NCBI GenBank assembly: GCA_964390805.1 | Contig: CAYMKL010000010.1 | Span: 12,158 to 76,157 of the forward strand | From: an uncultured Anaerolineae bacterium | Lineage (GTDB): Bacteria; Chloroflexota; Anaerolineae; VGOG01 | DNA length: 64,000 bases | Direction: 5' to 3' | Shown: positions 5,341 to 35,903 of the stretch, piece after piece | Layout: each line of letters opens with the position of its first letter | How positions within the stretch are numbered: position 1 is the stretch's first letter | The notes under the pieces: generated by a model | What the model saw: the letters and a program-made list of their open reading frames with translations, nothing else | What the model was told of the DNA's origin: nothing | Database searches by the model: none | Program-made: the position numbers and the translations under genes

Positions 5341-5347
5341 TGGAGGG

Positions 5348-5447: not shown

Positions 5448-5469
5448 TGCCAAGACAAGGAGTGGAGCC

Positions 5470-5913: not shown

Positions 5914-5927
5914 AGCCGAGGAAGATT

Positions 5928-6092: not shown

Positions 6093-6122
6093 AGCCATTT
6101 TTGAATAGTGAGGAGGCAAAAA

Positions 6123-6905: not shown

Positions 6906-6932
6906 GCAGACCTTCTGCGAAGGGAGACGGGA

Positions 6933-10383: not shown

Positions 10384-10390
10384 GTTACGT

Positions 10391-11080: not shown

Positions 11081-11101
11081 CGGAAGAGAAAGAGACGATA
11101 T

Positions 11102-12439: not shown

Positions 12440-12520
12440 GTTCGTAAATTCGGGGGCACGAATCTACGAGTTCCGAATGTACGAATCTACCAACTCACAA
12501 ATTAGAGGAGGAAAAAGCAA

Positions 12521-13303
12521 ATGGATCAACTAGTAAGTCTGCTACCAATTATCTTTCCTGTCGCGATCTTGGTGGGCCTCATCGTCGTCCCTGCCGTCAA
12601 GATCGTCTATCAGTACGAGCGCGGTGTACTGTTCCGCTTCGGTAGGTTCATAGGCCTCCGCAAGCCGGGCATCAACCTGATCTTGCCCTGGATTGACAGG
12701 CTGGTCAAGGTTGACCTGCGAACCAGAACGGTGATCCTGACACCCCAGGAGGTCATCACCCGCGACAACGTGACTGTCCACGTGGACGCGGTGGTGTACT
12801 TCAACGTCTTTGACCCAGAGCGCGCTGTCATCCAGGTTGAAGAATACGCCATGGCCACCGAGCAGTTGGCCCTGACCACTCTGCGGAGTGTGCTGGGCCA
12901 GTCCGATCTCGACGAGCTCCTGGCCCATCGTGACCGCATCAACGAGCGCCTGCGGGACATCATTGACGATCATACCGAAGATCCGTGGGGCGTGATGGTC
13001 ACGCTGGTCGAGGTGCGGGACGTGTTGTTGCCAGAAGGGATGCAGCGGGCCATGGCCCGCCAGGCTGAGGCCGAGCGAGAAAAGCGAGCCAAGATCATCC
13101 ACGCCGAGGGTGAGGAAGCGGCGGCGCAAGCCCTGGCCAATGCAGCCAGGACCATCGGTGCCGCACCGCCAGCGATACAACTGCGCTACTTGCAGACGCT
13201 GGTCGAGATGGCTGGTGAAAGAAACAGCACCATTATCCCCTTGCCGGTGGACATTGTCTCTTTTTTGGGCGAAGGGCTACGGCAGGGGAGCGACTCAAAG
13301 TAG
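12521..13303 (+). CDS. SPFH/band-7 protein (paralog of 6123..6905)
   Basis: The band-7 core is nearly identical to the first copy ('TRDNVTVHVDAVVYF', 'AMARQAEAEREKR'). Confidence 0.85.
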   Translation: MDQLVSLLPIIFPVAILVGLIVVPAVKIVYQYERGVLFRFGRFIGLRKPGINLILPWIDRLVKVDLRTRTVILTPQEVITRDNVTVHVDAVVYFNVFDPERAVIQVEEYAMATEQLALTTLRSVLGQSDLDELLAHRDRINERLRDIIDDHTEDPWGVMVTLVEVRDVLLPEGMQRAMARQAEAEREKRAKIIHAEGEEAAAQALANAARTIGAAPPAIQLRYLQTLVEMAGERNSTIIPLPVDIVSFLGEGLRQGSDSK

Positions 13304-13384
13304 CCATTGATCATCAACCTGGGAGTATGGCTGGAGCGTTCCCGCCATGACGCAGCCACGCCTGGGTAAGACATCTGGAAATCA

Positions 13385-13477
13385 GGGTTTTCGCTAGCGG
13401 GTAGATTCTGGTTAGCGAGCAGACTGGAGCTATCACATCTCCTCGCTTTTGGACGCAAAAACCTGGTTTCCAGTTGA
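13385..13477. promoter_or_regulatory. second copy of the CTGGAAAYCAGGTTTT ... AAAAACCTGGTTTCCAG inverted-repeat element
   Basis: The arms at 13385-13401 and 13461-13477 are reverse complements with 2 mismatches. The arm sequence is the same as at 5348-5447. Confidence 0.45.
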
Positions 13478-13501
13478 ATCAGATTACGGAAGGAACCAAG
13501 A

Positions 13502-14593
13502 ATGAGATATTGGATATCTCGTCACTATTGGCTAGTAGTCATTGTGCTGATCCTGGCGGCTCTGCTGCTTACTGTAGGGCCAACCTCGGCTCAGCCCCCC
13601 GTACCCCACGGTGTAATAGAGGGGGATGACTGCCTCAGTTGCCACGAGGCGGGTGTAGCTGATGCGCTTCGCCTGTCGCGAGACCACATGGGGCGCAACA
13701 ACGAAGACTGCGCCATCTGCCACGAACCCAGCGGTGCATTCGCAGACGACACACCCCACCCGATAGCCGGTCGAGAGGATTGTCTCTCGTGCCATAGCGT
13801 GGGGATAGGCACTATATTGGCCAGGAGTCACCTGGAACGCACGAACGACCAGTGCGAACTATGCCACCTGCCCTCGCCTGCTGTAGAGGAGCCTACTCCG
13901 ACCCCGGCCACAGCGAAACCTACTCCCACCCCAACCCCCCACGCCACTCCAGAGGCAGGCCCTCCCCCTTCTGGGGCAGAGACCTGCGCGGCGTGTCATC
14001 AGCGTACGGCCGTTGATGAAGGACATGCTACGTTCACCAGCCAGCCCCTCGGTGACCAAGAGGCCGGTGCAACGCTCTTCACTCAGCAGTGCGCGACCTG
14101 CCACGGCGAGGATGGCGCCACGCCGGTGGGCGAAGATGGGAACATCATCAACTCAGAGGAGTACTTGAGCGCTCACGACGACGCTGACATTCTGAAGGAC
14201 ATCGGCATCAACCCTCACGGCGCGACGCCTGCCTTTGTCGAGGACTACGGCGGTCCCCTCTCGTGGGAGGAGGTGTTGGATCTGGCAGCCTTCGTTCGCT
14301 TGTGGGGACCGATGGCTGCGCCACACGCAATGCCTGGGCCAACCTATGCCAGTACCATTGGTTCACTGCTGACCGAGCGGTGTGGAGCCTGTCATGGATC
14401 TGCTGGCGGTCTGAGTGTGGCGGACTATGATGCACTGATGGCTGGGGGCTCTTCAGGCCCTGTGGTGGTGCCCGGCGATCCGGAGGGAAGCAGCCTCGTT
14501 GAGTTGCTGCGGGGGGGACACTTTGCTCAGTTGAGCGAGGCGGAACTAGACCTGTTGATCGAATGGATCGCCAATGGAGCACCAGGGGAGTAA
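13502..14593 (+). CDS. heptaheme c-type cytochrome (paralog of 6933..8042)
   Basis: 7 CXXCH motifs. Pro/Thr-rich linker 'EEPTPTPATAKPTPTPTPHATPEAGPPP'. The C-terminal 'LDLLIEWIANGAP' is conserved with the first copy. Confidence 0.85.
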   Translation: MRYWISRHYWLVVIVLILAALLLTVGPTSAQPPVPHGVIEGDDCLSCHEAGVADALRLSRDHMGRNNEDCAICHEPSGAFADDTPHPIAGREDCLSCHSVGIGTILARSHLERTNDQCELCHLPSPAVEEPTPTPATAKPTPTPTPHATPEAGPPPSGAETCAACHQRTAVDEGHATFTSQPLGDQEAGATLFTQQCATCHGEDGATPVGEDGNIINSEEYLSAHDDADILKDIGINPHGATPAFVEDYGGPLSWEEVLDLAAFVRLWGPMAAPHAMPGPTYASTIGSLLTERCGACHGSAGGLSVADYDALMAGGSSGPVVVPGDPEGSSLVELLRGGHFAQLSEAELDLLIEWIANGAPGE

Positions 14594-14599
14594 GGCAAG

Positions 14600-16362
14600 A
14601 TGAGGCGTGTGTTTAGTACCAAGAACTGGTCTTCAGAGGCCAAACCCATCCTGCGATGGGCTGGCCTTATGCTGCTGGCGGCCGGTCTGTTAGTGGCCTG
14701 TGCCCAGCAGTCAACAGAGACTACCACTGTGAAGTCTGGCCAACAGCGCCGCCCGTTACTATTCTAATCGAGGCCACGCCCGCACCACCGGTCGAGCCGG
14801 TGGCAATGACGTGGCGCGAGTCGGTGGATGCCTTGTTGGTCGAAGCGGACATCGGCGCGGAGTCGCAAGGGTGTGTCAACTGCCACCTGGCCACGACGCC
14901 TAAGATGGTGGAACAATGGGTCTCGTCGGAGCACGCAGCAGAGAGTGTTGATTGCCTGGAGTGCCACACAGCCCAGGAGGGGGACTGGGACTACACGGAA
15001 CACCATGGCAACGTGGCTGTCGCCACCAATCCAACGGCCGGTGACTGCGCCAACTGCCACGAGCAGGAGTACGAGGAATTCAGCCGGAGCAAGCACTCAG
15101 CCCTGGCGATGATCTTCTTCTCCGCCTCGTTCGACCGAAACGTCCTCGAGCCGACCATCGCCACCAAGCACGGCTGTCAGGAGTGCCACAACATTGGCCA
15201 CTTCTGGCCCGACCAAAGCGTGGGCGAGTGTGACGCCTGCCACCCCAAACACTCCTTTGACGTGGCCGTGGCCCGCAATCCCTACACTTGCGGCGAGTGT
15301 CACATCGGCCCAGATCACCCGCACATCGAAATCTGGGAAGAGTCCAAACACGGCAACGTGTTCATGAGCAACCCCGAAAACTGGGAGGAGCTGGGCTACG
15401 AGGCCGTGAAGGGGGAGCCGCCACCCTTCGACGCGCCGACCTGCACCACTTGTCACATGGACGCCACGGTTAACCTGCCGGCCACGCACGATGTCGGCTC
15501 TCGAATGGCCTGGGAGACCCAGTCGCCGTGGACGATCCGCGCTACCGAAGCCTGGGGAGGCGGGCTGACCTGGGAGGAGAAGCGGGCGAACATGACCGCG
15601 ACCTGTCTCCAATGCCACGCCCAGCCTTTTGTTGACCGCTACTTGCTGGAAGGCGATATGGCCGCGCTCCAGTACAGCGAGATCTTCCGCGAGGGCAAGC
15701 GCTGGTTGAACGAGATGAACGAGGCTGGCATCATCTTGACGGCCGGTTTCGAGGGCCTGGCTCCCTTTGGCACAGCCGGCTACGACGAAGTTCCCGAGGA
15801 GATCTCATATCACATCTGGCACCACGAAGGCCGACGCTACCGCCACGGCGCGCTGATGATGGCAGCCGACTACACCCAGTGGCACGGCATCTGGGACTTG
15901 CAGCATGATCTGATAGAGATTATCCGCTACGGGGCCGAGCACGGCCTGCCCGAAGCTGAGGCTTGGATGGCGTCGGACGATCCGGCCAAGTTCTGGCTCT
16001 ATCCGTTCTACGATGTGCCCGGTTCGGTCTGGGGCATTGACACCATCGCCTACCGCATGGGAGACGATTGGACGACCAAGATCTGGATGAACCGCAACGG
16101 CCAGGAAGGTCTCGACGCCTACTGGGAAGCCGCCTATGCCAACGTCCAGGCGGCATACGAGGCGGGCCTTTTCTCCGATGAGCAGTGGTCGCTTTATCGG
16201 CAGCTCTTCGAGAACCGCGAAGTCGAGAACGGCAACACCTATCCGCTGCCGGATCTCTTCCAGGTGCACCTGGACGGGAAGGCGGCCGATGGCGCAGCGG
16301 CCAGTGAATACGGGGCGGGGTTGCAATTGCCCGGTGCAGATGGCTGGGACTACTCTCCGTGA
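14600..16362 (+). CDS. octaheme c-type cytochrome (HAO/OTR-like lipoprotein) with an apparent single-base frameshift separating the lipoprotein signal (14600..14767) from the mature domain (frame of 14656..16362)
   Basis: Frame 2 reads 'MRRVFSTKNWSSEAKPILRWAGLMLLAAGLLVACAQQ...' (lipobox LVAC) and stops at 14767. Frame 1 continues 'PPVTILIEATPAPPVEPV...' with 8 CXXCH motifs. One extra C in the run near 14748-14756 would fuse the two. Confidence 0.6.
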
Positions 16363-16422
16363 GATGGGTGGTCCTCGAGCGAACGTGATGCGGGATTGAC
16401 GGTGATCAATGAAAGACCTGCC

Positions 16423-17895
16423 ATGGATTCTAAGATACGATCTCGCTTGAGACCCCTTAGAACAAGCCTGCGCGTCAGAGTCGCCTTGGGCGTCGCGTTG
16501 CCGATCGTGTTGGTGCTGTTCTCGCTGTCCTTGATACACTACTGGCGCGAGCGTCAACTGCTGGAATACCAGATTGGGCTGACCGCGTTGCAGTTGGGCG
16601 ACATGATGGTAGGCAACCTGCGCCATGCCATGATGGCCAACGACCGCGAGATGCTCGACCAGATCCTCGCTGACGTGGGCAGAATGGAAAACGTTCATCA
16701 GGTGCAGATTCTGGACCTCGAAGGCCGGGTGAAAGTAGACAGTCGTGGTGAGGAGGAAGGGGAAACTATCTGGCAGCGCGACGATCTTGGATGCATCGAA
16801 TGTCACCAGTCGCCAGTCGAGCCCTGGCCCCGCGTGGCGGAGTTGCCCACCTCGACTGGCGTGGTGCAGATTTCCATACCGATCGAGAACGAGCCAAGTT
16901 GCACCGGTTGTCACACAGAGGACACTCCTCATTTAGGAGAGTTACTCTTTGAAGTGTCTCTCATTGATGTCGGAGAGCATCTCCTCCACAACCTTCAGGT
17001 CGACTTGGCTGTCTTGGTCGGAAGCACGGTGTTGGTGACATTGGGCCTGTATTCGCTGGTGCATTTGCTGGTGGTGCAGAGGGTAGAGGCATTTCGTCGC
17101 CCTCTAGCGGAGTTCGCCGCTGGCGATTTCACCTCCCGATTGCCATCCCCCTTGGTTCCAGCCGATGAGCTGGATGAGTTGGCCAATACCTTCAACCAGA
17201 TGGCGCACGAACTCGAGCGCCGTGGTCGCGAGCAAGAGGAGCGCAGCGAACTGCGGCAGCGGGCCATCGTGGAGGAGCGCGAACGCATTGCCCGTGAACT
17301 GCACGATGGGCTGGCTCAACTGCTTGGGTACGTCAACACCAAGACGATGGCTGTGCGGCTGATGCTGAAGAATCAGCAGGTGGAGGCTGCTGATCGGCAC
17401 CTCCTTCAACTCGATGAAGCCACCCGTGAGCTGTCCGTTGATGTGCGCCAGGCAGTGCTCGGGTTGAGGACAGCGGGGCAAATCGGTGACGGACTGACCG
17501 CCATGCTCGGGGACTTCGCCGCTCAGTTTAGCCGCTTCGGCGGTGTCCCGGTCGAGGTCGTAATCGCGCCGGAGATCCAGGGCCTTGCACTGACTCCCGA
17601 GGCTGAACTGCAATTGCTTCGCATCGTCCAGGAAGCGTTGACCAACGTCCGAAAGCATGCTTCGGCTACCCGGGCGTGGGTGAGCTTGGAGGTCAACGGC
17701 AACATTCTTGAACTAACAATCGGCGACAACGGCAATGGATTCGATGTGGAAGGTCATCGTCTCAATGATCGGTCACGCTTTGGATTGAGCACGATGCGAG
17801 AGCGGGCTGAGGCCATTGAGGCCGAGTTCAACCTGGACTCCGTGCCAGGTGCCGGAACCCGGGTCACGGTACGGCTAGCTGAGAGAGAGGGGTAG
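16423..17895 (+). CDS. sensor histidine kinase (HisKA_3/NarX-LiaS type) with a periplasmic domain carrying two CXXCH c-type haem motifs
   Basis: TM1 at ~residues 28-50. Periplasmic segment with 'CIECH' (nt ~16792) and 'CTGCH'. TM2 at ~200. HAMP-like region. HisKA_3 H-box 'RIARELHDGLAQLL'. HATPase_c 'ITIGDNGNGFD...GLSTMRERAEAI'. Confidence 0.85.
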   Translation: MDSKIRSRLRPLRTSLRVRVALGVALPIVLVLFSLSLIHYWRERQLLEYQIGLTALQLGDMMVGNLRHAMMANDREMLDQILADVGRMENVHQVQILDLEGRVKVDSRGEEEGETIWQRDDLGCIECHQSPVEPWPRVAELPTSTGVVQISIPIENEPSCTGCHTEDTPHLGELLFEVSLIDVGEHLLHNLQVDLAVLVGSTVLVTLGLYSLVHLLVVQRVEAFRRPLAEFAAGDFTSRLPSPLVPADELDELANTFNQMAHELERRGREQEERSELRQRAIVEERERIARELHDGLAQLLGYVNTKTMAVRLMLKNQQVEAADRHLLQLDEATRELSVDVRQAVLGLRTAGQIGDGLTAMLGDFAAQFSRFGGVPVEVVIAPEIQGLALTPEAELQLLRIVQEALTNVRKHASATRAWVSLEVNGNILELTIGDNGNGFDVEGHRLNDRSRFGLSTMRERAEAIEAEFNLDSVPGAGTRVTVRLAEREG

Positions 17896-17899: not shown

Positions 17900-18547
17900 A
17901 TGCGCGTCCTGGTAGCTGACGACCACCCTTTGTTTCGCGATGGCATAGTTAGCCTGCTTGAGGCGGCTGGCTTTGATGTCGTTGGACAGGCCGGCAACGG
18001 TCGGGTAGCTGTCGAGATGGCGCTGGGCCTGCGCCCCGACCTGGTACTGATGGACATCACCATGCCGCAGATGACGGGCCTAGAAGCATTGCGCTTGATC
18101 AAGGCTGAGTTGCATGAGACACAAGTGGTGATGCTAACTGTCTCCGACGACAACGCCGATTTGATTGAAGCTGTCAAGGCAGGGGCGCAGGGCTACCTAC
18201 TCAAAAACCTGAACGCCAGCGAGTTTCTGGAGATGCTTGCGGGACTGGAGCACGGCGAGGCTGCCATCACCCGTAAGACTGCCACCCGCTTGATCGAGGG
18301 CTTTGCTGACCGGTCTCGCCCGCACTCCGAGCCGTTGGAAAGCCTTACCCAACGGGAGATAGAAATCCTTCGCTTGGTGGCCGAAGGCCTCCCGAACAGG
18401 GCCATTGCCCAGGCGTTATTCGTCAGCGAGAATACCATTAAATATCACATGAAGAACGTCCTGCAAAAATTGGGCGTTCAGAACCGGACCGAAGCCGCCA
18501 CTTCCGCCCTCCGCGCTGGGCTTCTCAAGTCTGACTCTCCCCGCTAG
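17900..18547 (+). CDS. NarL/FixJ-family response regulator (REC + LuxR HTH)
   Basis: 'MRVLVADDHPLFRDGIVSLL...LVLMDITMP' (REC). C-terminal 'LTQREIEILRLVAEGLPNRAIAQALFVSENTIKYHMKNVLQKLGV' (LuxR HTH). Confidence 0.9.
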   Translation: MRVLVADDHPLFRDGIVSLLEAAGFDVVGQAGNGRVAVEMALGLRPDLVLMDITMPQMTGLEALRLIKAELHETQVVMLTVSDDNADLIEAVKAGAQGYLLKNLNASEFLEMLAGLEHGEAAITRKTATRLIEGFADRSRPHSEPLESLTQREIEILRLVAEGLPNRAIAQALFVSENTIKYHMKNVLQKLGVQNRTEAATSALRAGLLKSDSPR

Positions 18548-18659: not shown

Positions 18660-18689
18660 TTGCCAGATGCGATCATTTTGTGTTATAAT
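18660..18689 (+). promoter_or_regulatory. sigma70-like promoter with extended -10 (TTGCCA - 18 nt - TGtTATAAT)
   Basis: -35 TTGCCA at 18660-18665; TGn extended -10 with TATAAT at 18684-18689. Lies upstream of the ORF at 18751. Confidence 0.55.
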
Positions 18690-18750
18690 TGCCGAAGGGA
18701 AGCTCTGAAAGGTTCAATGATGTCAAGCCGTGTGGTGGGAGGTGTGCCCG

Positions 18751-19083
18751 GTGCGGAGGCGCGTCGTCATCCTATCAGGCCATTCGCTCTTTGCTGAGGG
18801 CGTTGCTAGCCAGCTCCGACAGCACCCACAGGAGTTGGAGGTTGAGGTTGTGGATATCCGGCAGCCGGATGCGATGGCCCAAATCATCGCTGTCCGGCCG
18901 TCCGCCGTGATCCTGGACACCACCGACTCTGAGGTCGCCCGGCTTGGCCTTATGAGCAGACTGCCACTTGTGCTTCCGGAGCTCAAGATTGTCTGCCTGG
19001 ACTCACAGCAGGAACACATCCAGGTGGTGACAAGCGAGCAGCTTCCAGCGGATCAGGTGCGTGATCTGCTCGATGTGATTTAG
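18751..19083 (+). CDS. stand-alone receiver-like (pseudo-receiver) domain protein
   Basis: REC-like fold signature ('VVILSGHSLF...AVILDTTD...LKIVCLD') but lacking the N-terminal acidic DD pair. GTG start at 18751 follows a GGGAGG RBS. Confidence 0.45.
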   Translation: MRRRVVILSGHSLFAEGVASQLRQHPQELEVEVVDIRQPDAMAQIIAVRPSAVILDTTDSEVARLGLMSRLPLVLPELKIVCLDSQQEHIQVVTSEQLPADQVRDLLDVI

Positions 19084-19177
19084 CACTTCCCACAGTCAAT
19101 GGGATGAAAAGAAAGGAGGGTGATAACCAAAGAAGATAGTTCGGAAGACGTTTGAACAGAGAATCAGAGGAGGATAT

Positions 19178-22100
19178 ATGAGAGACATCAGAAAGTTAGT
19201 GGTTCTATGTGTTGTTCTGACGGCCGTGGTGCTCGTTGTCGGCGGCTGTACGACTCCCACACCTGAGACCATCGAAAAGGAAGTGACCAGGGAAGTGCCG
19301 GTCGAAGTCACCCGAGAGGTGGTGGTGGAAAAGGAAGTCACCGTGGAGGTGGAGAAAGAAGTGCCGGTCGAAGTCACCCGCGAGGTAGAGGTAGAGGTCA
19401 CGCGAGAGGTGGAGGTAGAGGTCACGCGGGAGGTGGAGGTAGAGGTGCCGGTGGAGGGAGAGCCAGGCGTGGAGGCGCCCTTCGAGGCGCTCTGGGCTGG
19501 CTCCGGGCACGCCGATGCGGAGGCCGAGGCTTTCAGACACTGGGACGAGGACGATCCAGTAGAGGTATCCACTAGTTGCGCCAAGTGCCATAGCTCCTAT
19601 GGGTATCTGGACTTCCTGGGCGCAGATGGCACCGAAGCCGGTGTGGTGGATAATGCTGCGGCTGTGGACTCGGTGATTGACTGCACCACGTGCCACAACG
19701 AAGCAGCCGCCAGCCTGACCAGCGTGGTCATGCCCTCTGGCGTCGAACTCACCGGTCTCGGCGCAGAGGCCCGCTGTATGCAGTGTCACCAGGGACGCCA
19801 GTCCACCGTCAGTGTCAACGATCACGTCGCTGCGGCAGGTGTCGCCGACGACGACACAGTCAGTGAGGATCTTGCTTTCCGTAACGTCCACTACTTCGCG
19901 GCCGGCGCCACGCTCTATGGCGGGCAGGCCATGGGCGGCTATCAGTACGATGGCAAGACCTACGACGCCAGGTTCGCGCACGTCGAGGGGATAGACACCT
20001 GCATAGACTGTCACGATCCCCACACTTTGGAAGTCAGGGTGGAGATGTGCAGCGCGTGTCACGTGGATGTGTCCAGCAAAGAAGACCTGGCGGACATCCG
20101 ACTGCTGGGCTCTGGAGTGGATTTCGATGGCGATGGCGAAGTCAGTGAAGGCATCGCTGTCGAAATCGAGCACCTTCAGGAGGTCCTCTATGAGGCTATC
20201 CAGGCTTATGCCAGTGATGCTGGAACTCCCGTCGTGTACGACTCCCACGCTTACCCCTACTTCTTCATAGACACCAATGCCAACAGCGAAGCCGATGCTG
20301 ACGAGGCCAACTACGGCAACAGGTACAATGCCTGGACCGGACGTCTGCTCAAGGCAGCCTACAACTACCAGTACTCCAAGAAGGATCCTGGCGCGTTCGC
20401 TCACGGCGGCAAGTATGTCATCCAGCTCCTCTACGATTCCATTGAGGACTTGGACGCTGGCCTTGTAGCGGGTCTGCATCGCGACGACGCAGGGCACTTC
20501 GCCGGATCAACAGAGGCATGGAGGCACTGGGATGAGGATGGCGAAGTTCGCAGTTCCTGCGCCAGGTGTCATAGTGCCACTGGCCTGCCGTTCTACCTGG
20601 AAACGGGTGTCAATGTAGCCGAGCCTCTGGCCAACGGGATGCTGTGTTCCACCTGCCATGACCCCGAGACGTACGCTCCGTACGCTGTGGATGAGGTGGA
20701 GTTCCCCAGCGGCGCGACCGCCAGCTTTGGCGAGGGGGCGACTTCGAACCTGTGTCTGAACTGTCACCAGGGACGCCAGTCCACCGTCAGCGTCAACTCC
20801 AGAATTGGCGACAACGAGGACGACGCTGTGGTGGAGGGGTTGGGCTTTGCCAACGTCCACTACTTCGCGGCCGGCGCCACCATGTTCGGCGGGGAGGTCA
20901 TGGGCGGGTATCAGTACGATGGCAAGACCTACGACGTCAAGTTCGCCCACGTCGAGGGGATAGATGCTTGCGTGGATTGCCACGACGCTCACACCTTGGA
21001 AGTCAAGGTGGAGGTCTGCAGCGCGTGCCACGCGGGCGTGTCCAGTGCAGAAGACCTGGCGGACATCCGCTTGCTAGGCTCCATTGCGGATTACGATGGT
21101 GATGGTGAAGCCACCGAAGGCATTGCCCACGAGATTGAGCACCTGACGGAGGTTCTCTACGGGGCTATCCAGGCCTATGCCGCAGACGTGGCTGGCACCC
21201 CCATCGTGTACAACTCGCACCGCTACCCCTACTGGTTCACCGATGCCGAAGAAAGATACGGCACCTGGACGCCTCGTCTGCTCAGAGCGGCCTACAACTA
21301 TCAGTACGCCAAGAAGGATCCCGGCGCGTTCGCTCACGGCGGCAAGTACCTCATCCAGCTCCTCTACGATTCCATTGAGGACCTGGATGCTGGCCTGGTG
21401 GCGGACATGCACCGCGACGATCCAGGGCACTTTGCTGGGTCTACGGAGGCATGGCGGCACTGGGATGAGGATGGCGAGGTCAGTGCTTCGTGCGCCAAGT
21501 GCCACAGTGCCACTGGCCTGCCCACCTACCTGGCAACGGGAGAAAATGTAGCCGAGCCCTTGGCCAATGGGATGCTGTGCACCACCTGCCACGATGATCC
21601 CGTCGCGTACACCCGTTACGCTGTGGACGAGGTGGAGTTCCCCAGCGGAGCCGTGGCAGGCTTTGGCGAGGGGGTGGATTCCAATCTCTGTCTGAACTGT
21701 CACCAGGGACGCCAGTCTACCGTCAGTGTTGATGAGCACATCACTGCGGCGGGCGTCGGTGACGACGAAGTCAGCGGAGATCTTGGTTTCCGTAACGTCC
21801 ACTACTTTGCGGCCGGGGCCACGGTCTTCGGTGCGGAGGCTATGGGGGCGTACCAGTACGAGGGCAAAGAGTACGTCGGAGCGTTCGCTCACGTACCGGG
21901 CTTCGACACTTGCACCCAGTGCCACGACACTCATAATCTCGAAGTCAAGGTAGAAGCCTGTGGCACGTGCCATCCCGGCAAAGAGAGTGTCGAAGACATC
22001 CGCATGAGCACCACGGACTTCGACGGGGACGGCCACGCGGACGAAGGCATCGCCCACGAGATCGACCACTTGCAGGAGACTCTCTACGGAGCCATCCAGG

Positions 22101-22381
22101 CTTACGCCAGCGAGGTTACCACGCCCATCATATACGACTCACACTCCTACCCCTACTTCTTCGTGGACACCGACGGGAACGGTGAGGTTGATGCGGGCGA
22201 GGCTAACTACGGCAACAGGTACAGAGCCTGGACACCGCGTCTGCTCCGGGCTGCCTATAACTATCAGTACGCTGCCAAGGATCCCGGCGGGTTTGCTCAC
22301 AACGGCAAGTATGTCATCCAGGCGCTTTACGATAGTCTGGACGACATCGGCGCCGATACCGCTGGCATGGTTAGGCCTTAG
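19178..22381 (+). CDS. large lipoprotein multiheme c-type cytochrome: 15 CXXCH in three tandem pentaheme domains, preceded by an EVTREV repeat linker
   Basis: Signal plus lipobox 'LVVGGC'. Repeat linker 'EVTREVPVEVTREVVVEKEVTVEVEKEVPVEVTREVEVEVTREVEVEVTREVEVEVPVE'. Three ~320-aa repeats each with CA(K/R)CHS, C(T/S)TCH(N/D), C(M/L)(Q/N)CHQ, C(I/V/T)(D/Q)CHD and C(S/G)(A/T)CH. Confidence 0.9.
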   Translation: MRDIRKLVVLCVVLTAVVLVVGGCTTPTPETIEKEVTREVPVEVTREVVVEKEVTVEVEKEVPVEVTREVEVEVTREVEVEVTREVEVEVPVEGEPGVEAPFEALWAGSGHADAEAEAFRHWDEDDPVEVSTSCAKCHSSYGYLDFLGADGTEAGVVDNAAAVDSVIDCTTCHNEAAASLTSVVMPSGVELTGLGAEARCMQCHQGRQSTVSVNDHVAAAGVADDDTVSEDLAFRNVHYFAAGATLYGGQAMGGYQYDGKTYDARFAHVEGIDTCIDCHDPHTLEVRVEMCSACHVDVSSKEDLADIRLLGSGVDFDGDGEVSEGIAVEIEHLQEVLYEAIQAYASDAGTPVVYDSHAYPYFFIDTNANSEADADEANYGNRYNAWTGRLLKAAYNYQYSKKDPGAFAHGGKYVIQLLYDSIEDLDAGLVAGLHRDDAGHFAGSTEAWRHWDEDGEVRSSCARCHSATGLPFYLETGVNVAEPLANGMLCSTCHDPETYAPYAVDEVEFPSGATASFGEGATSNLCLNCHQGRQSTVSVNSRIGDNEDDAVVEGLGFANVHYFAAGATMFGGEVMGGYQYDGKTYDVKFAHVEGIDACVDCHDAHTLEVKVEVCSACHAGVSSAEDLADIRLLGSIADYDGDGEATEGIAHEIEHLTEVLYGAIQAYAADVAGTPIVYNSHRYPYWFTDAEERYGTWTPRLLRAAYNYQYAKKDPGAFAHGGKYLIQLLYDSIEDLDAGLVADMHRDDPGHFAGSTEAWRHWDEDGEVSASCAKCHSATGLPTYLATGENVAEPLANGMLCTTCHDDPVAYTRYAVDEVEFPSGAVAGFGEGVDSNLCLNCHQGRQSTVSVDEHITAAGVGDDEVSGDLGFRNVHYFAAGATVFGAEAMGAYQYEGKEYVGAFAHVPGFDTCTQCHDTHNLEVKVEACGTCHPGKESVEDIRMSTTDFDGDGHADEGIAHEIDHLQETLYGAIQAYASEVTTPIIYDSHSYPYFFVDTDGNGEVDAGEANYGNRYRAWTPRLLRAAYNYQYAAKDPGGFAHNGKYVIQALYDSLDDIGADTAGMVRP
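19290..19470 (+). repeat. in-frame tandem nucleotide repeats encoding the (EVTREV/EVEV) linker
   Basis: 'gaggtagaggtcacgcgagaggtggaggta' is reiterated about 3 times, with degenerate flanking copies. Confidence 0.8.
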
Positions 22382-22592: not shown

Positions 22593-24113
22593 TTACGACG
22601 CCAGAAGTTGGTCAAAGGCGTAGCGCTTGGCCACGTTCTGCAGTTCGGGAGCCAGTTGGCGCAGCGTCCGCTCGAAGGATTGGCGAGCATTCTCCCGCCC
22701 GAAACGGTGACTGACTACGTCCAGTTGCGTCAGCAGGAAACGGCGGTACATCTCCACCAGGTCATCGGTCCTCAGTTGGGGATCGGCCTGATCCTCGATC
22801 CTTCCCCGATTGAGGCGTAAGGGCAGATGGGCACATAGCTGGTTGACCTCCTCCTCGCAGGCGCGGTCTTCAGGTGAGGCTCGCCAGGCTATGGTGCTAC
22901 TGCACATCAGCTCGGCGATCTCGCGGAAGACGCGGCGCAGGCGGATCTTGTCCAGGTCGGCAGTGCGCACGACTCCCACTGCGACCAGGCAGTAAAAGCC
23001 CCGGCTGACTTCGAAGACGGTCAGGCCCAGCTCACGGGCGATGGTTGCCACGTCCTTGACACCGTCAACGGCAGCCACGATCTGCTCCTCGGCTGGCGTC
23101 AGGGACAGACCATCCATGCGCTCGTAAGCGGGGCCCAGCTCAAAGATGGCGTCGGCCGAGGGGACCAGCCGCTGGATGATGGTCCAGTTGTCCACCCAAC
23201 GGCAGCCGCACAGGATTAGGTCCTCGGCGCTGAGAGCCAGGGGGACACACCAGTCCTCGCAGCCCGTCTCCTGATCGAAGGTGAATTGCCCTTCCTGCCA
23301 GCGAAAGAGATCGCATAGCCCTTCCAATACTTGTTCGGGAGGCGGTGGGGGAGGGACCGGCTCGTCCTGGCGCAGGCAGGCGGCACAGACAGGTCTCCCC
23401 CCTTCAAAGCTGAGGGTGCGGATCACAACCCCATCGGTGATGGTGAGTGTGCCGCTGTGCCGACCAGAGACGATGAGGCGAATGAGATCGGGCAAATGAT
23501 AATGGCGCAGGTTACCGCTGAGGATCATCAGTCCTCGCCGGGTGCCTGCTTCGGCATGGTGTGCCTCTCCCTCACCTTGAATATCACGGATGACGTCGGC
23601 CAGCCAGTCATGCTCCATCTCCAGGAAACGACACGTATGATCGAGGATGGCCAGCTTGAGGGGCGATTGTCCGTCATCCTGTTCCGCAGCCAGGGCCGCC
23701 TGGACTTTTTGGGTCTCCTCGGCCAGGAACGCCTGGCGCTGTTCCAGCAAGGGGATGGCACGCTGCAAGGGGAGCTTGTTCAACAAGTGGATGACCAGGT
23801 CATAGGCGAGATAGGTCTTCTCCTGGCTGGCTGCCTGGATCTCCATGGCCGCAAAGAAGGCGCTCCGGCCTTCCTCAGTGAGACGGTAAGTGGACTTGCG
23901 AGCACTGCGGGCTCCTCGCTGACGCGACTCGGCCACCAGGCCCTGATCGCGCAGCTTGCCCAGCGAATAGTAGACGCCGGCCATACTGACGTTGAACCAG
24001 GCATCAATGCCCTCGGCCTGGATCTGCTGGTAGAGCTCGTAGCCGTGCATGGGCCGGTCCAGCAGCAAGCCTAGAAGCAGTAGGTCCGTTTTGGTCGCGA
24101 CTGGCTTAGTCAT
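22593..24113 (-). CDS. PadR-family transcriptional regulator with a long C-terminal extension (~400 aa)
   Basis: N-terminal PadR wHTH 'LLLLGLLLDRPMHGYELYQQIQAEGIDAWFNVSMAGVYYSLGKLRDQGLV...STYRLTEEGR'. Start chosen at MTKPV (GGGAGG RBS); an alternative start is at 24140. Confidence 0.7.
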   Translation of the reverse strand: MTKPVATKTDLLLLGLLLDRPMHGYELYQQIQAEGIDAWFNVSMAGVYYSLGKLRDQGLVAESRQRGARSARKSTYRLTEEGRSAFFAAMEIQAASQEKTYLAYDLVIHLLNKLPLQRAIPLLEQRQAFLAEETQKVQAALAAEQDDGQSPLKLAILDHTCRFLEMEHDWLADVIRDIQGEGEAHHAEAGTRRGLMILSGNLRHYHLPDLIRLIVSGRHSGTLTITDGVVIRTLSFEGGRPVCAACLRQDEPVPPPPPPEQVLEGLCDLFRWQEGQFTFDQETGCEDWCVPLALSAEDLILCGCRWVDNWTIIQRLVPSADAIFELGPAYERMDGLSLTPAEEQIVAAVDGVKDVATIARELGLTVFEVSRGFYCLVAVGVVRTADLDKIRLRRVFREIAELMCSSTIAWRASPEDRACEEEVNQLCAHLPLRLNRGRIEDQADPQLRTDDLVEMYRRFLLTQLDVVSHRFGRENARQSFERTLRQLAPELQNVAKRYAFDQLLAS

Positions 24114-24180
24114 CGGTCCGCCTCCCTGTCTGCTGCTCATAGTATACCAGAAAACCTGGGAAAAATCAACTCAAACATTC

Positions 24181-24209
24181 TTGACAAAAGGCGAAAAACG
24201 TGTTATAAT
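24181..24209 (+). promoter_or_regulatory. consensus sigma70 promoter (TTGACA - 17 nt - TATAAT, extended -10 TGtTATAAT)
   Basis: TTGACA at 24181-24186; TATAAT at 24204-24209. Nearly identical to the promoter at 30766-30794. Confidence 0.7.
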
Positions 24210-24286: not shown

Positions 24287-24934
24287 ATGAGTGCAAAATC
24301 GGTTTCACGGCGCACCTTCCTTAAATCGGCTCTGGCCGGAGGTGCGCTGGTTGCTGTGGGCGGTGGGGCAGCCCTGGCCAGTCCGAAACAGGCCGATAAG
24401 ACGGCAGATTATGCCCTGATCATTGACACCACCAAATGCGTGGGCTGCGGCGCATGCGAGACAGCCTGCAACCTGCGCAACCACCTGCACGAAGGCCACA
24501 GTTACATCCACATCCTGCACCGGGGCGAGGGAGAAGACGAGCGTTTTCTGCCTGTCCAATGCCAGCACTGTGCCGATCCCCCGTGTGCCCACGTCTGCCC
24601 TACCAACGCCACCTACATCCGCGACGACGGGGTGGTGCTCATCAATGAAAAGGTCTGCGTCGGCTGCCACTACTGCGAAGTGGCCTGCCCCTATCAGGCT
24701 CGCATCTTCGATGAGGGGCGGGGCGTGGCCGACAAGTGCTGGCTGTGTCTGGACTACGTTTTAGGCGGCGGCGAGCCGGCCTGTGTCCATGCCTGTGTGC
24801 TGGGGGCCCGACTGTTCGGTCGCACCGACGATCCGGGCAGTGAAGTGGCTCAACTAATCGCCTCGGGACAGGCCAAGCCGCTCCGTCCCGAATTTGGCAC
24901 CGAACCGACGGTGCTCCGCTACATCATCGAGTGA
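24287..24934 (+). CDS. Tat-exported 4Fe-4S ferredoxin-type subunit (HybA/NrfC/DmsB-like)
   Basis: Tat signal 'SRRTFLKSALAGGALVAVGGGAALA'. Cys clusters 'CVGCGACETACNLRN', 'CQHCADPPCAHVCP', 'CVGCHYCEVACPY', 'CWLCLD...CVHAC'. Confidence 0.9.
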   Translation: MSAKSVSRRTFLKSALAGGALVAVGGGAALASPKQADKTADYALIIDTTKCVGCGACETACNLRNHLHEGHSYIHILHRGEGEDERFLPVQCQHCADPPCAHVCPTNATYIRDDGVVLINEKVCVGCHYCEVACPYQARIFDEGRGVADKCWLCLDYVLGGGEPACVHACVLGARLFGRTDDPGSEVAQLIASGQAKPLRPEFGTEPTVLRYIIE

Positions 24935-24937
24935 GGT

Positions 24938-25906
24938 GTGACCATGCAAACTGCCTGGGGTTGGTTGCCATCCATTTACCTGTTTTTGGGCGGTCTGGGA
25001 GCCGGGGCGTTTTTAGTGGCCGCTATCATGGAGTGGACAGGTGAGCAATACAAACACGACTTTTGCCCCACCTCTATGGTAGGCGCCACCGTTGGCGGGC
25101 CACTGTTGCTTTTGGGCACAGTGTTGCTGATTTTCGACCTGGGGGCTGGCCTGAGACAACCCTGGCGTATCCTCCACATGTTCACCCACTTCAGCTCGGT
25201 GATGACCTGGGGCATCTGGATCCTGAGCATCTTCATCCCCTTGTGTTTCCTGTACGGCTTTCTGGAGCTGATGGAGGTCTACCCCAGAGTGTGGCAGGGA
25301 CTGTTTGTTCGCCGCTTTTCCCCGCTGGGCCGGCTGCAGTTACGACGGATCAAACACTGGGTGGCCGGAATAGGTAGTCTGTTCGCCGTGGGCACGGCTG
25401 TCTACACCGGGGTGTTACTGTCAGCGGTGGGGCCGTCTATCCCCTTCTGGTCCACTCCTATTGCTTCCGGTCTGCCCATTCCCATGCTGCCGGTGTTGTT
25501 CTTGGTATCGGCCATCTCCACCGGCCTGGGCTTGACCATTGACCTGTCGGCCACCGTGTCCCTACCGGAGGTGTTGCGCCGCTTCCACTACATGCCTATG
25601 ATCCACCTGGTGCTCATCGGGTTGGAAGCTGTGCTCATCGGAGCGCTGTTGCTGGTGGCTCTGGGTCAAGGTGGAGAAGCAGCTCAATCGGCCACTTATA
25701 TCCTTAGTGGCCAACTGAGTGTGGTCTTTTGGATCGGGGTGGTGGCGCCAGGTTTGGTCTTTCCTTTTGTGGTACACGCCTACGCCATCGGTGCTGGTAG
25801 TCACTCCCTGGCTTCGGGGCTGATTTCCGGAGTGGGTATCGTCGTAGCTGGCCTGTTTCTGCGCTACATCATCGTCGCTAGCGGCGTACCGGCCGCCCTA
25901 TGGTGA
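24938..25906 (+). CDS. NrfD/PsrC-like polytopic membrane protein
   Basis: 322 aa with ~8 TM helices. Sits between the HybA-like and multiheme cytochrome genes. Confidence 0.75.
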   Translation: MTMQTAWGWLPSIYLFLGGLGAGAFLVAAIMEWTGEQYKHDFCPTSMVGATVGGPLLLLGTVLLIFDLGAGLRQPWRILHMFTHFSSVMTWGIWILSIFIPLCFLYGFLELMEVYPRVWQGLFVRRFSPLGRLQLRRIKHWVAGIGSLFAVGTAVYTGVLLSAVGPSIPFWSTPIASGLPIPMLPVLFLVSAISTGLGLTIDLSATVSLPEVLRRFHYMPMIHLVLIGLEAVLIGALLLVALGQGGEAAQSATYILSGQLSVVFWIGVVAPGLVFPFVVHAYAIGAGSHSLASGLISGVGIVVAGLFLRYIIVASGVPAALW

Positions 25907-25922
25907 TTGGAGGAGATGCAAC

Positions 25923-27476
25923 ATGATCCCATCTACGTGGCCTCGTTGGACAGTGATCGTGATTGGGTTGATCCTGGCTGTGCTCACAATTGCCATCGCC
26001 TTGCTACTGGAGCCAGTGGGCCAGGCCTTCGCCCCAGCGATTACACCCACACCGACGCTTCCCTCTATCAATTACGCTCGTCCCGTCTCTGGCGAGTGCG
26101 AGCAGTGCCACTTCGACAGACAGGCCCTCATTGCCAGTGCAGACTCCTCTGAGAACGTGGAAGACTTCTACTTCTACATCGAGCCGGCCTCTCTGAACAC
26201 TCCTCATGGACACCTGGGATGTATCACCTGCCACGGCGGCACGGCGAACGTGGCTGACGAAGAGGCTGCTCATCAGGGCTTGATTGAGGACCTCAGTGAG
26301 ACCCATCCTGAGGATTGCCTGCTTTGTCATCGCAACCTCCCAGACCAGCTCCCTGAGGACCATCTGCGCACCCCCCACGGCCAGGTATCCAACGCTGTCT
26401 GGGAAGGCTCAGCGTGTGGGGTGTTGTGCAGTGATTGCCATGGACAGGTGGGCCACGGGTTCGACCCCGTCACGGGTGAGATCATCTGTCCCATGACCGT
26501 GTGCCTGGATTGCCACATTGAGCGCGGGCTGGGAGAAAAGCTCACCGATTGTAACACCTGTCACGTTGGCCCCCACGATGTGGCTGTGGCCATGACCTGC
26601 AAGGACTGCCATACCTCCACGGACACGTGGAAAGAGACGGCGCTGTCGGTGCATCCAGTGGAGATCATGGGCCAGCACGCCACAGCAGATTGCTTTTCCT
26701 GCCACGGGTGGCCCGATTTCAAGGGATTGGACTATGTCTGCAGCGACTGCCACAAGCAGTCTCACGACTTCGGCGGCGACAACTGTGCACTGTGTCACAC
26801 CTCGGTCGGCTGGGCTGAGTCAGCCGATGCACTGGTGGCCGGTGCCACGGGCATCCCCCATCCAGTAGTCGGGCGCGAAGACTGCCGATCCTGCCACGGA
26901 TTAGAGGGCCAGCCACCTATCCCGGTTGATCACAAGGGGCGCATCAACGATACCTGTCAGATCTGTCACGTCCTGGAACCGGCGCCGGCCATCCTGCACC
27001 CGGTGGAGGGGCACGAGCGTTGCCTGAGCTGCCACGGCGAGGGCCAGGTTGCCCAGTTCCCGCTCTCTACGCACAGAGACCGTGATGAGGCGAGTTGCCG
27101 CGCCTGCCACGACCCAGCCGGTGTGGTGCCGCTGCCCATCTCACATCCGCTGGAGGGGAGGGAGGACTGTCTCATGTGCCATGCAGCCGAGGCTTTCATG
27201 CCCTATCCAGACAGCCACGAGGGCTGGGGGAATGAGCTCTGTCAGCTTTGTCACGAGGCTGGAGCACTGCCGAGCGAGGGGGAACATCCCTTCCCGCAGG
27301 ATCACGACGGGGCGGCCAAGGTTTGTGTCCTCTGCCACTCTGGCAATGACTTCACGGCCTATCAGTGTGACACTTGCCATGCCGCGGATGGAATGCAGCA
27401 AGTGCACAGTGCGCGAGGAATCAGCGGGATAGAGAATACCTGTGCGCTCTGCCACCCGCAGGGACAAAAGCCATAG
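25923..27476 (+). CDS. 19-heme c-type cytochrome with N-terminal signal peptide
   Basis: 19 CXXCH motifs counted across 517 aa. Signal 'VIVIGLILAVLTIAIALLLEPVGQAFA'. Confidence 0.9.
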   Translation: MIPSTWPRWTVIVIGLILAVLTIAIALLLEPVGQAFAPAITPTPTLPSINYARPVSGECEQCHFDRQALIASADSSENVEDFYFYIEPASLNTPHGHLGCITCHGGTANVADEEAAHQGLIEDLSETHPEDCLLCHRNLPDQLPEDHLRTPHGQVSNAVWEGSACGVLCSDCHGQVGHGFDPVTGEIICPMTVCLDCHIERGLGEKLTDCNTCHVGPHDVAVAMTCKDCHTSTDTWKETALSVHPVEIMGQHATADCFSCHGWPDFKGLDYVCSDCHKQSHDFGGDNCALCHTSVGWAESADALVAGATGIPHPVVGREDCRSCHGLEGQPPIPVDHKGRINDTCQICHVLEPAPAILHPVEGHERCLSCHGEGQVAQFPLSTHRDRDEASCRACHDPAGVVPLPISHPLEGREDCLMCHAAEAFMPYPDSHEGWGNELCQLCHEAGALPSEGEHPFPQDHDGAAKVCVLCHSGNDFTAYQCDTCHAADGMQQVHSARGISGIENTCALCHPQGQKP

Positions 27477-28969: not shown

Positions 28970-29515
28970 ATGAACAATTCTACACTGCGCGGATTGGTAA
29001 CCCTGACCGCGTTGCTGCTGGTCGTCTTATTGGCGGCTTGCGGGCCTCAGCCGACGCCGGTCACACCGGTGCCGCCGACGACCGTAGTGGCTGCACAGCC
29101 CACTGATACCCCGGTGCCGCCTACGGACACGCCGGTGCCGCCGACTGACACTCCTGTCCCGCCAACCGCTACGCCGATACCCCCAACCGATACTCCTATC
29201 CCACCCACTGCCACGCCGGTACCTCCGACCGATACCCCGGTGCCGCCCACCGCTACGCCAGTACCCCCAACCGATACTCCCATCCCACCCACCGCTACGC
29301 CAGTGTCCCCAACCGATACTCCTATCCCACCCACCGCCACGCCGATGCCCCCAACCGACACGCCGGCACTGCCTACCGATACCCCGGAGCCTCCAACAGC
29401 CACACCGGTGCGCAGCGCGGACAATTGCGTCGCCTGCCACACCGATGAGGCGACGCTGCAGGCCCTGGCTGTGGAGAAGGAGGTCAAGTCGGCCGAGACG
29501 TCGGGTGAGGGCTGA
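28970..29515 (+). CDS. lipoprotein with a Pro/Thr-rich repeat linker and one CXXCH; probably the N-terminal part of the downstream decaheme cytochrome (separated by an in-frame TGA)
   Basis: Lipobox 'LLAACG'. ([12 protein letters not shown])n repeats. 'CVACHT' near the end. Same reading frame as the 29534 ORF; stop TGA at 29513-29515. Confidence 0.7.
29090..29400 (+). repeat. in-frame tandem repeats encoding the PT(D/A)TP(V/I)PP linker
   Basis: Reiterated 'cccaccgatactcctatcccacccaccgctacgccagtaccc'-type units. Confidence 0.8.
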
Positions 29516-29533
29516 GGAGGAGCGTTACCTCCG

Positions 29534-33185: not shown

Positions 33186-33223
33186 AGATCTGCTGAAGGT
33201 AAAAAGCAAAGAAAACAGAGGAG

Positions 33224-33451
33224 ATGAAAGCGATGTTTCAACGATTATTCGGTCGTGGAGGCGGTCGTGGTGGAGGCCGCGGCCTGGGACACGGCGGAGG
33301 GCGGGGCCGCATGGGCGGCACCAAGGCTGGTGCGGGGCCCGACGGCTACTGCATCTGCCCCAACTGCGGACATAAGGCGCCACATCAGGTGGGTGTGCCC
33401 TGCTACCAAATGGACTGCCCCAAGTGTGGCACCAAGATGGTGAGGGGGTAA
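33224..33451 (+). CDS. small Gly/Arg-rich zinc-ribbon protein (paralog at 49206..49442)
   Basis: 'FGRGGGRGGGRGLGHGGGRGRMGG' followed by 'CICPNCGHKAPHQ...CPKCGTKM' (two CxxC). Confidence 0.6.
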   Translation: MKAMFQRLFGRGGGRGGGRGLGHGGGRGRMGGTKAGAGPDGYCICPNCGHKAPHQVGVPCYQMDCPKCGTKMVRG

Positions 33452-33454
33452 GCC

Positions 33455-35232: not shown

Positions 35233-35241
35233 GGGGAGCAA

Positions 35242-35898: not shown

Positions 35899-35903
35899 GC
35901 GAT

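Follow-up and report, generated by a model that had tools for sequence, protein, structure and literature searches.

Here we analyze a 64,000-nucleotide stretch of DNA (the window, whose own numbering is used throughout) from an uncultured Anaerolineae bacterium (GenBank assembly GCA_964390805.1, contig CAYMKL010000010.1, forward-strand positions 12,158 to 76,157). We focus on one of its genes, an open reading frame (ORF) at 19178..22381 on the + strand that encodes a cytochrome of 1067 amino acids (aa) with 15 CXXCH haem-binding motifs. We propose that this 15-haem protein is a Sec-exported, lipid-anchored electron conduit of the cell surface that is fed from menaquinol, a reading that we consider probable rather than secure. 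More tentatively, and at a level that we rate a little below even, its tandem module of "five haems + three helices" may define an undescribed, largely Chloroflexota family of surface terminal oxidoreductases. This family would be a functional counterpart of Shewanella MtrC and Thermincola OcwA, with at most a remote relationship to the NrfA/OcwA lineage. The length of its haem wire would be tuned in evolution by staggered in-frame duplications producing one, two, or three modules, the 15-haem protein being one such extended form.

In its general character the protein is unsurprising, since multihaem cytochromes are known to be plentiful in this phylum and it adds another predicted one. It is of a known kind (i.e., the surface multihaem cytochromes of bacteria without an outer membrane). 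Its family occurs widely, has not been curated, and has no established structural place. Anaerolineae and their relatives in the Chloroflexota rank among the commonest bacteria of sediments, aquifers, and wastewater sludge. They have repeatedly been suspected of exchanging electrons with minerals or electrodes, yet no terminal reductase has been identified for them. With its predicted lipid anchor, its spacer, its tandem pentahaem modules, and its location in cytochrome-rich islands, the family of the 15-haem protein is a candidate for this missing surface step.

Three pentahaem units behind a signal peptide and an acidic spacer

Exactly 15 CXXCH motifs are found in the protein, arranged as three sets of five, when only ~0.04 would be expected by chance from its own Cys/His content. 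Thirty of its 32 Cys residues belong to these motifs, the remaining two being C11 of the signal peptide and the lipobox-like C24, and no CXXCK or longer/variant haem motif is present in the 1067 residues. Since self-BLASTP gave only the trivial full-length match, unit boundaries were set by MAFFT and a hidden Markov model (HMM) built from the three repeats. Unit 1 (aa 101-433; 19478..20476, + strand), a module with five haems and a helical part, has its CXXCH motifs at aa 134, 169, 200, 275, and 291. In unit 2, a mosaic middle module (aa 434-744; 20477..21409, + strand), they are found at aa 461, 490, 526, 598, and 614. Unit 3 (aa 745-1067, with the HMM match ending at 1064; 21410..22381 including the stop codon, + strand) has them at aa 772, 801, 838, 912, and 928. 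The order of the motifs is identical in the three units, which share 66% (units 1 and 2), 61% (units 1 and 3), and 73% (units 2 and 3) protein identity. A first-pass annotation of the window had described a 1067-aa ORF with 15 CXXCH motifs and three ~320-aa repeats with the same motif order, preceded by a lipobox and a spacer with EVTREV repeats, and all of these features are confirmed here and in the N-terminal analysis below.

Conservation outside the haem-binding motifs is informative about ligation. When 255 units of the family were aligned, five non-motif His residues (H111, H238, H268, H282, and H409 in unit-1 numbering) were found to be 100% invariant, while a sixth (H121) is 95% conserved, and all three units of the 15-haem protein keep these residues. 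Since five non-motif His are invariant in each five-haem module, all 15 haems are probably bis-His ligated. Moreover, a D-x-D-G-D-G...E loop downstream of haem 5 (D315-E329 and its equivalents) is invariant or nearly so in all units, the DxDxDG form being that of a calcium-binding loop. A second, EF-hand-like loop of 12 residues is seen in units 1 (DTNANSEADADE, aa 365-380) and 3 (DTDGNGEVDAGE, aa 997-1012) only, as it was lost from unit 2 through a 13-aa deletion (~aa 690, window 21230-21260). The motifs F-x-N-x-H-Y and K-D-P-G are invariant in the units as well.

As for the N-terminus, the ATG at 19178 is preceded by the purine-rich, Shine-Dalgarno-like AGAGGAGGA (19166..19174, + strand), which was read from the sequence. 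The protein starts with MRDIRKLVVLCVVLTAVVLVVGGC, in which a charged n-region containing K/R and a hydrophobic h-region are followed by LVVGG and then C24. The predicted signal peptide (aa 1-23; 19178..19249 on the + strand, including the Cys24 codon at 19247-19249) has a lipobox-like VGG-C end and displays what is expected of a lipoprotein, namely a hydrophobic core and then a Cys in position +1. The V-G-G sequence is a less common lipobox. Residues 2-19 were modelled as a helix by AlphaFold2 (AF2), and a lipobox-like Cys is found in the equivalent place in 80 of the 114 homologues with complete N-termini.

The signal peptide leads into an acidic spacer of 76 residues (aa 25-100; 19250..19477, + strand), rich in Glu, Val, Thr, and Arg and containing the EVTREV repeats (E 24, V 24, T 10, P 6, and R 5). 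A 24-nucleotide tandem repeat at 19366-19446, which was detected by both Tandem Repeats Finder and a direct-repeat search, accounts for some of its coding sequence. In the full-length AF2 model, which has a mean predicted local distance difference test score (pLDDT) of 83.9 and a predicted template-modelling score (pTM) of 0.68, unit 1 reaches a pLDDT of ~93, while the spacer region (aa 21-90) shows pLDDT values <50 and no secondary structure. Linkers of the EVTR/VEV type occur in 45 of the same 114 homologues and linkers of a CPxCP type in 14. There is no EVTREV spacer on any other ORF of the window.

Genomic neighbourhood and the proposed electron route

The window forms an island of respiratory genes. 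Downstream of the 15-haem gene lie three genes on the + strand, which encode a 4Fe-4S protein exported by the twin-arginine translocation (TAT) pathway (24287..24934), an NrfD-type membrane subunit (24938..25906), both identified by Pfam, and a cytochrome with 19 CXXCH motifs (25923..27476). This cytochrome has an N-terminal transmembrane anchor and 517 residues (i.e., ~27 per haem). The trio (24287..27476), a putative menaquinol-oxidising donor module, has a perfect sigma-70 consensus (TTGACA-17-TATAAT) on its 5' side at 24181-24209, and it is reminiscent of the logic of NrfC/NrfD/NrfB in the Escherichia coli NrfBCD system, where menaquinol electrons are delivered to an extracytoplasmic cytochrome. 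In the window, the trio is separated from the 15-haem gene by a divergent gene on the - strand (22593..24140), which encodes a 515-aa protein with an N-terminal PadR-type DNA-binding domain and DUF4388. That gene is absent at the orthologous locus of another Anaerolineae metagenome-assembled genome (MAG) contig, L001. There, an orthologous trio (69/64/74% identity) directly precedes the 15-haem orthologue, in the same orientation and contiguous with it, and CcmE/F/A/B/C genes follow directly on the 3' side. No Ccm/Ccs genes are found in the 64-kb window.

On the other side, a sensor histidine kinase (16396..17895, + strand; Pfam HAMP, HisKA_3, and HATPase_c) is followed by a NarL/GerE-type response regulator (17900..18547, + strand; Pfam Response_reg and GerE). 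Since two CXXCH motifs (GCIECH and SCTGCH) are located in the extracytoplasmic loop between the two transmembrane helices of the kinase, this protein may be a haem-c redox sensor, and the pair are candidate redox-responsive regulators of the 15-haem cytochrome. Among the 48 related loci that span at least 15 kb, 17 have a relative of the kinase near the cytochrome and 25 a relative of the regulator. Directly upstream of the 15-haem gene, a small conserved ORF (18730..19083, + strand; 117 aa, no Pfam match) may be co-transcribed with it from a promoter-like site at 18660-18689. A 110-aa gene occupies the same position in locus L002, and phmmer detects relatives of the 117-aa ORF in ~10 related loci.

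A more general property of these loci is their richness in cytochromes, another multihaem ORF being present within 10 kb in 45/48 of them and two or more in 37/48. The neighbours of other family members include a b-type cytochrome subunit, NapC/NirT, NrfCD, further multihaem cytochromes, and kinase/regulator pairs. A role in electron transfer at the cell surface, which had been suggested in the first-pass annotation, is the best-supported reading of the 15-haem protein, given the TAT-FeS/NrfD/19-haem module (FeS, iron-sulfur), the predicted haem-c kinase, and these abundant multihaem genes. It is also consistent with what is known of the phylum. Anaerolineae have many large multihaem cytochromes and possible extracellular electron transfer (10.1101/2021.08.23.457424; PMC7399161), and Chloroflexota, which are treated as lacking a Gram-negative envelope, are rich in large multihaem cytochromes (PMC7399161). 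An isolate, Ardenticatena maritima, respires with electrodes and Fe(III) and performs both anodic and cathodic electron transfer, its surface cytochrome ARMA_0580 being a different, seven-haem protein (PMC5808234).

We therefore favour the following model, which is built from motifs, gene order, and structure predictions. A lipid on Cys24 would anchor the protein on the outer face of the cytoplasmic membrane, Anaerolineae being presumed to have a single membrane, and the acidic, unstructured spacer of 76 residues would keep the redox body away from that membrane. This body would consist of the three consecutive modules, each made of five haems and a C-terminal helical part with a DxDGDG calcium-type loop, and its 15 bis-His haems would form one long relay, which the third module, kept under purifying selection, would lengthen by five haems. 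Electrons would flow from menaquinol to the NrfD/FeS complex, then to the membrane-anchored 19-haem cytochrome and the 15-haem lipoprotein, from which they would exit to external acceptors (Fe(III)/Mn(IV) minerals, humics, electrodes, or partner cells), and reverse flow would also be possible. The neighbouring pair of haem-c sensor kinase and NarL-type regulator would probably control its expression.

Several observations weigh against this model. The localisation, lipidation, and haem occupancy of the protein are predicted from motifs, and 34 of the 114 complete homologues have no lipobox-like Cys. The geometry between units is predicted with moderate confidence (pTM 0.68), the junction of units 1 and 2 (aa 428-450) having pLDDT values <50. 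Relatives, some of them three-unit proteins, occur in MAGs labelled Myxococcota, which have two membranes, so that the module is not confined to single-membrane bacteria. When the window neighbours were searched by tblastn in 85 related loci, close relatives of NrfD were found in 4 and relatives of the FeS protein in 21. Since individual neighbours are not widely conserved in these loci, the idea of an operon conserved across the family was dropped, and we retain just the overall enrichment in multihaem genes and the synteny of the FeS/NrfD/19-haem trio in two genomes. The window also holds two molybdenum (Mo)/NrfD clusters, which are possible alternative partners of the 15-haem protein. Finally, the cytochromes OcwA and NrfA, with which the protein is compared below, have open-site haems, and one catalytic haem per unit is possible.

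The Mo/NrfD clusters underlie an alternative in which the protein acts as an electron hub or capacitor in the wall zone (the equivalent of a periplasm), collecting and storing electrons from quinol-oxidising NrfD modules and supplying other cytochromes and extracytoplasmic enzymes encoded nearby, among them two molybdopterin oxidoreductases exported by TAT. These two paralogous clusters (1014-8042 and 8074-14593, + strand) each encode a TAT molybdopterin oxidoreductase (~770 aa), a 4Fe-4S protein (229 aa), an NrfD subunit (430/445 aa), an SPFH/Band-7 protein, and a cytochrome with seven CXXCH motifs and a class-I cytochrome c domain (369/363 aa). Their presence in the same window speaks for a hub, as do a molybdopterin oxidoreductase gene just downstream of the two-unit relative P0012, neighbours that vary from locus to locus, and a lipid anchor that would hold the protein at the membrane. 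However, the Mo enzymes have FeS/NrfD partners and dedicated 7-haem cytochromes of their own, and in two genomes the 15-haem gene is syntenic with the FeS/NrfD/19-haem trio rather than with a Mo enzyme. As the long spacer and the weak resemblance to OcwA moreover point outward, we regard a hub as unlikely, if the least so of the alternatives.

A second alternative retains the surface haem chain and inverts its direction, so that electrons from Fe(II), cathodes, or partner cells would enter the quinone pool or reach nitrate/oxygen reductases. In principle, multihaem chains can run either way, A. maritima transfers electrons in both directions (PMC5808234), and some family members belong to filamentous taxa of activated sludge and oxic-anoxic interfaces (e.g., Leptofilum and Promineifilaceae). 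Against this, there are no Cyc2-like or cupredoxin partners among the annotated ORFs of the window, where nothing marks an oxidative pathway, and the direction of electron flow is not readable from sequence. We consider uptake as the main function to be quite unlikely.

Structural comparisons and the extent of the family

The pentahaem unit has a confidently modelled fold for which there is no significant solved relative. The AF2 model of unit 3 (aa 745-1067), generated with an alignment of 117 sequences, has a pLDDT of 95.1 and a pTM of 0.93. Its five CXXCH motifs are located in a region of mostly coil and short helices, with the last motif at 184-188, and after haem 5 come a long helix (214-236), a β-hairpin, and two further helices (276-290 and 294-313). 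The unit model thus displays the three C-terminal helices that are found in cytochromes of the OcwA/OmhA/NrfA type. When it was compared with the PDB using Foldseek, nothing was found at E ≤ 0.001, and the best of the long alignments were with NrfA nitrite reductases (2rf7_A, query-normalised template-modelling score 0.40, E 3.7), which is not significant. The full-length model has as its best PDB match OcwA of Thermincola potens (6i5b_A, E 0.12, probability 0.99, 351 aligned columns), with 14% identity and a target-normalised template-modelling score of 0.33, and NrfA comes next. These matches to OcwA and NrfA are the only structural leads, and like the gene context they point to electron transfer at the cell surface. 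Of the comparisons proposed in the first-pass annotation, the one with the pentahaem NrfB holds at the level of haem motifs only. With the family profile, PDB NrfB (2ozy) gives an E value of 4.3, and the NrfB-like Pfam model PF22678 matches 6 of 62 relatives (best E 1.1e-4), so a relation to NrfB is not supported.

Comparisons at the sequence level lead to the same picture. The only phmmer match of the protein among PDB sequences is the MS2 coat protein (E 0.28), which is not meaningful, and the matches of the family profile in the PDB are limited to haem motifs (nine-haem cytochrome c, OmcS, and NrfB). In Pfam, generic haem-motif families of the c7/c3 type score above cut-off for the 15-haem protein, and no curated family covers the unit. 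Several NCBIfam models (DmsE, GSU2203 decahaem, HmcA, and similar) score far below threshold, and we dismissed these as hits to haem motifs. For the domain II/IV model of MtrC/MtrF, PF22113, matches at E ≤ 0.01 were obtained in 42/62 relatives (best E 1.3e-11). In a scan of 10 proteins, its scores were 23-35 bits for a 30-bit cut-off, with coverage of profile positions ~71-168 of 176 only. This model gives no match at E ≤ 1 with the 15-haem protein itself. Moreover, the secondary structure assigned by DSSP to both AF2 models contains short hairpins only and none of the β-barrel domains of the MtrC family, and no MtrC-family chain is among the Foldseek matches. The pentahaem module is thus not demonstrably a member of any described family, and it is possibly a very distant relative of the C-terminal module of NrfA/OcwA.

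Among known systems, the closest in kind are OcwA (TherJR_2595, PDB 6I5B) and OmhA of Carboxydothermus ferrireducens, which are cell-surface multihaem reductases of Gram-positives (i.e., extracytoplasmic c-type cytochromes of hosts without an outer membrane). OcwA has a globular haem domain and a C-terminal three-helix bundle reminiscent of NrfA (PMC6703420), an arrangement that recurs in each unit of the 15-haem protein, and its haems 5-9 superimpose on the NrfA core (PMC6703420; PMC9250108). It has been proposed to perform the last step toward minerals or electrodes (PMC6703420), which is the role we propose for the 15-haem protein. However, OcwA is a single nine-haem protein combining c554-like and NrfA-like modules, with two high-spin haems and a β-sheet domain, whereas in the 15-haem protein three pentahaem modules, each with five invariant distal His, follow one another behind a lipobox and a long acidic spacer. 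Furthermore, the two have no match at the sequence level, even with the family profile. With NrfA, the units share five haems per module, long C-terminal helices, and a motif spacing in which three motifs and two motifs are separated by a gap of ~74 residues. In contrast to NrfA, the 15-haem protein has no CXXCK catalytic motif, its modules are in tandem and predicted to be lipid-anchored, and nrf pathway genes other than those for NrfC/NrfD-type subunits are absent.

Other parallels are more partial. Like the Shewanella outer-membrane lipoproteins MtrC, OmcA, MtrF, and UndA, in which 10 haems are distributed over two pentahaem modules, members of the present family have 10 haems in two such modules as their standard form, ~65-70 residues per haem, and a presumed role at the cell surface. 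They differ in that the 15-haem protein is modelled as largely helical/coil, without the β-barrel domains I/III, and has no porin partner of the MtrAB type. NrfB has five CXXCH motifs, as does each unit, yet it is a small soluble protein (163 residues in PDB 2ozy) without a helical part.

The structural leads have another possible implication, which is that each unit could contain one haem with open coordination, as in NrfA or OcwA, so that the protein would be a tri-catalytic surface reductase of nitrite, hydroxylamine, or sulfur species. NrfA and OcwA are indeed the best structural leads, and OcwA, in which two high-spin CXXCH haems are flanked by non-ligating, conserved His residues, reduces nitrite (PMC6703420; PMC9250108). 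In addition, the NrfA Pfam model (PF02335) scores just below its cut-off over haems 1-3 of unit 1 (21.6 vs. 24.1 bits), and an enzymatic function could account for the 95%-conserved sixth His, the invariant F-x-N-x-H-Y and K-D-P-G motifs, and a nearby rhodanese gene, all of which are otherwise unexplained. However, CXXCK is absent, the number of 100%-invariant non-motif His is exactly five per five haems, as predicted by all-bis-His ligation, and the NrfA model matches just 8/62 relatives, at E ≥ 1e-4. Since no genes of nitrite/ammonia or sulfite pathways were seen adjoining the 15-haem gene either, we find an enzyme of this kind improbable, even more so than electron uptake, and keep to the surface conduit as our preferred reading.

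We next consider how widespread the module is. A homology search in a database clustered at 90% identity returned >4384 proteins. Among the best 120, from which architectures were counted, 105 are two-unit proteins (~700-750 aa, 10 CXXCH) and 15 are three-unit proteins. A search with a single unit in a library clustered at 50% identity found 1290 representatives, 334 of them at E ≤ 1e-30. The unit matched these in 1 to 5 stretches, usually one to three, and some of them have other domains as well. Chloroflexota MAGs account for ~80% of the genome loci, and the labels on most of the genome matches are Anaerolineae/-ales, Chloroflexota, Ardenticatenia, Caldilineae, Thermoflexales, Promineifilaceae, and Leptofilum. 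A minority are labelled Myxococcota, Acidimicrobiia, Pirellulales, or others, and some of these may be binning errors. On two Myxococcota contigs (L005 and L007), ResB/CcsA, sigma-54 regulators, and a 1019-aa Geobacter-type cytochrome are encoded near three-unit relatives. In five three-unit proteins of ~1260-1300 aa from MAGs labelled Myxococcota (P0073, P0010, P0019, P0029, and P0047), the acidic spacer is replaced by N-terminal Ig-like domains of the Big_2/invasin type. In the literature that we searched, we found no description of the pentahaem-module family and no link of Chloroflexota cytochromes to OcwA.

Origin of the third unit and other genes of the window

The first-pass annotation had concluded from highly similar DNA repeats that the gene results from a recent internal triplication, a conclusion that our comparisons overturn. 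The repeats are not highly similar, since DNA identity between units ranges from 40-65% (N-terminal parts, unit 1 vs. 2 or 3) up to 76-93%, with repeat families within the gene that are 61-84% identical. In the alignment of 255 units, unit 1 is nearest to the first units of other proteins (72-85% identity), while unit 3 is nearest to the last units of two-unit proteins (68-75%). Units 1 and 3 are thus orthologues of the first and last units of an ancient two-unit (decahaem) architecture that is family-wide. Unit 2, however, has close counterparts only in the relative P0002 and in the partial sequence P0004, and beyond these it resembles paralogous units.

Its two parts have different affinities. 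The N-terminal part of unit 2 shares 83% identity with unit 3 but 39% with unit 1, whereas in its C-terminal part these values are 68% and 78%, respectively. In sliding windows, the first ~100 residues are of the family's last-unit type (78-88% identity to unit 3, 30-50% to unit 1), and from ~residue 120 onward, the affinity is reversed (77-85% to unit 1, 62-70% to unit 3). At the DNA level, the switch is located at ~20790-20840 and coincides with the ends of a pair of repeats that are 79-84% identical. The first copy (19846..20793, + strand) comprises the C-terminal part of unit 1 and the N-terminal part of unit 2, and the second (20815..21729, + strand) the C-terminal part of unit 2 and the N-terminal part of unit 3, with the novel duplication junction falling at ~20794-20814. 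Unit 2 is a chimera, and in the simplest model one in-frame tandem duplication, ~940 bp long and staggered by about one-third of a unit, converted A1A2-B1B2 into A1A2-B1A2-B1B2. This makes the gene a clean example of a haem wire growing by offset segmental duplication rather than by fusion of whole domains.

This duplication is not recent. The duplicated copies show a synonymous divergence (dS) of 0.68-0.72 and a ratio of nonsynonymous to synonymous divergence (dN/dS) of 0.13-0.19, and to judge from these values, both copies are kept under purifying selection. The old A and B halves are saturated (dS 1.0-1.3). P0002, a protein of 1026 aa from a separate assembly that is 75% identical overall, has the same three-unit mosaic, and its gene differs from the 15-haem gene by a dS of 0.40-0.85 in orthologous segments. 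Since the dS of the copies lies within this range, the extra unit is roughly as old as the split of the two MAG lineages. The same mosaic pattern is seen in P0003, P0010, and P0019. In P0003, the two halves of the middle unit are 75-76% identical to the protein's own flanking units and ≤70% to any other protein, which suggests an independent expansion or gene conversion.

Although the gene contains internal repeats of ~940 bp and the sequence is probably from a MAG, misjoined repeats in the assembly of what is truly a two-unit gene are so unlikely an explanation that we set it aside, because the copies are only 79-84% identical, no exact direct repeat of the gene exceeds 32 bp, its reading frame is undisrupted with both copies under purifying selection, and other assemblies contain the same mosaic (P0002) or the same chimeric middle unit (P0004). 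The concern that an assembler might have collapsed or expanded the repeats, which accompanied the original triplication claim, is largely removed by the short exact repeats and by the architecture of P0002.

Apart from the 15-haem gene, the window contains six further CXXCH-rich ORFs. A 568-aa cytochrome with eight CXXCH motifs (14656-16362, + strand) matches Pfam PF13447 (Multi-haem_cyto). An ORF with 10 CXXCH motifs (29534-30622, + strand) has a TTG start and no signal peptide, and directly on its 5' side there is a 181-aa ORF without a Pfam match (28970-29515), so that the region 28970-30622 may contain a mis-set start, a frameshift, or a split gene. Finally, a cluster at 32094-38288 (+ strand) encodes an FeS-assembly ATPase of the Mrp/NUBPL type, two CbiA/MinD-like ATPases with inserted 4Fe-4S ferredoxin domains, and two proteins with a dinitrogenase FeMo-cofactor-binding (NifX/NifB-like) domain.

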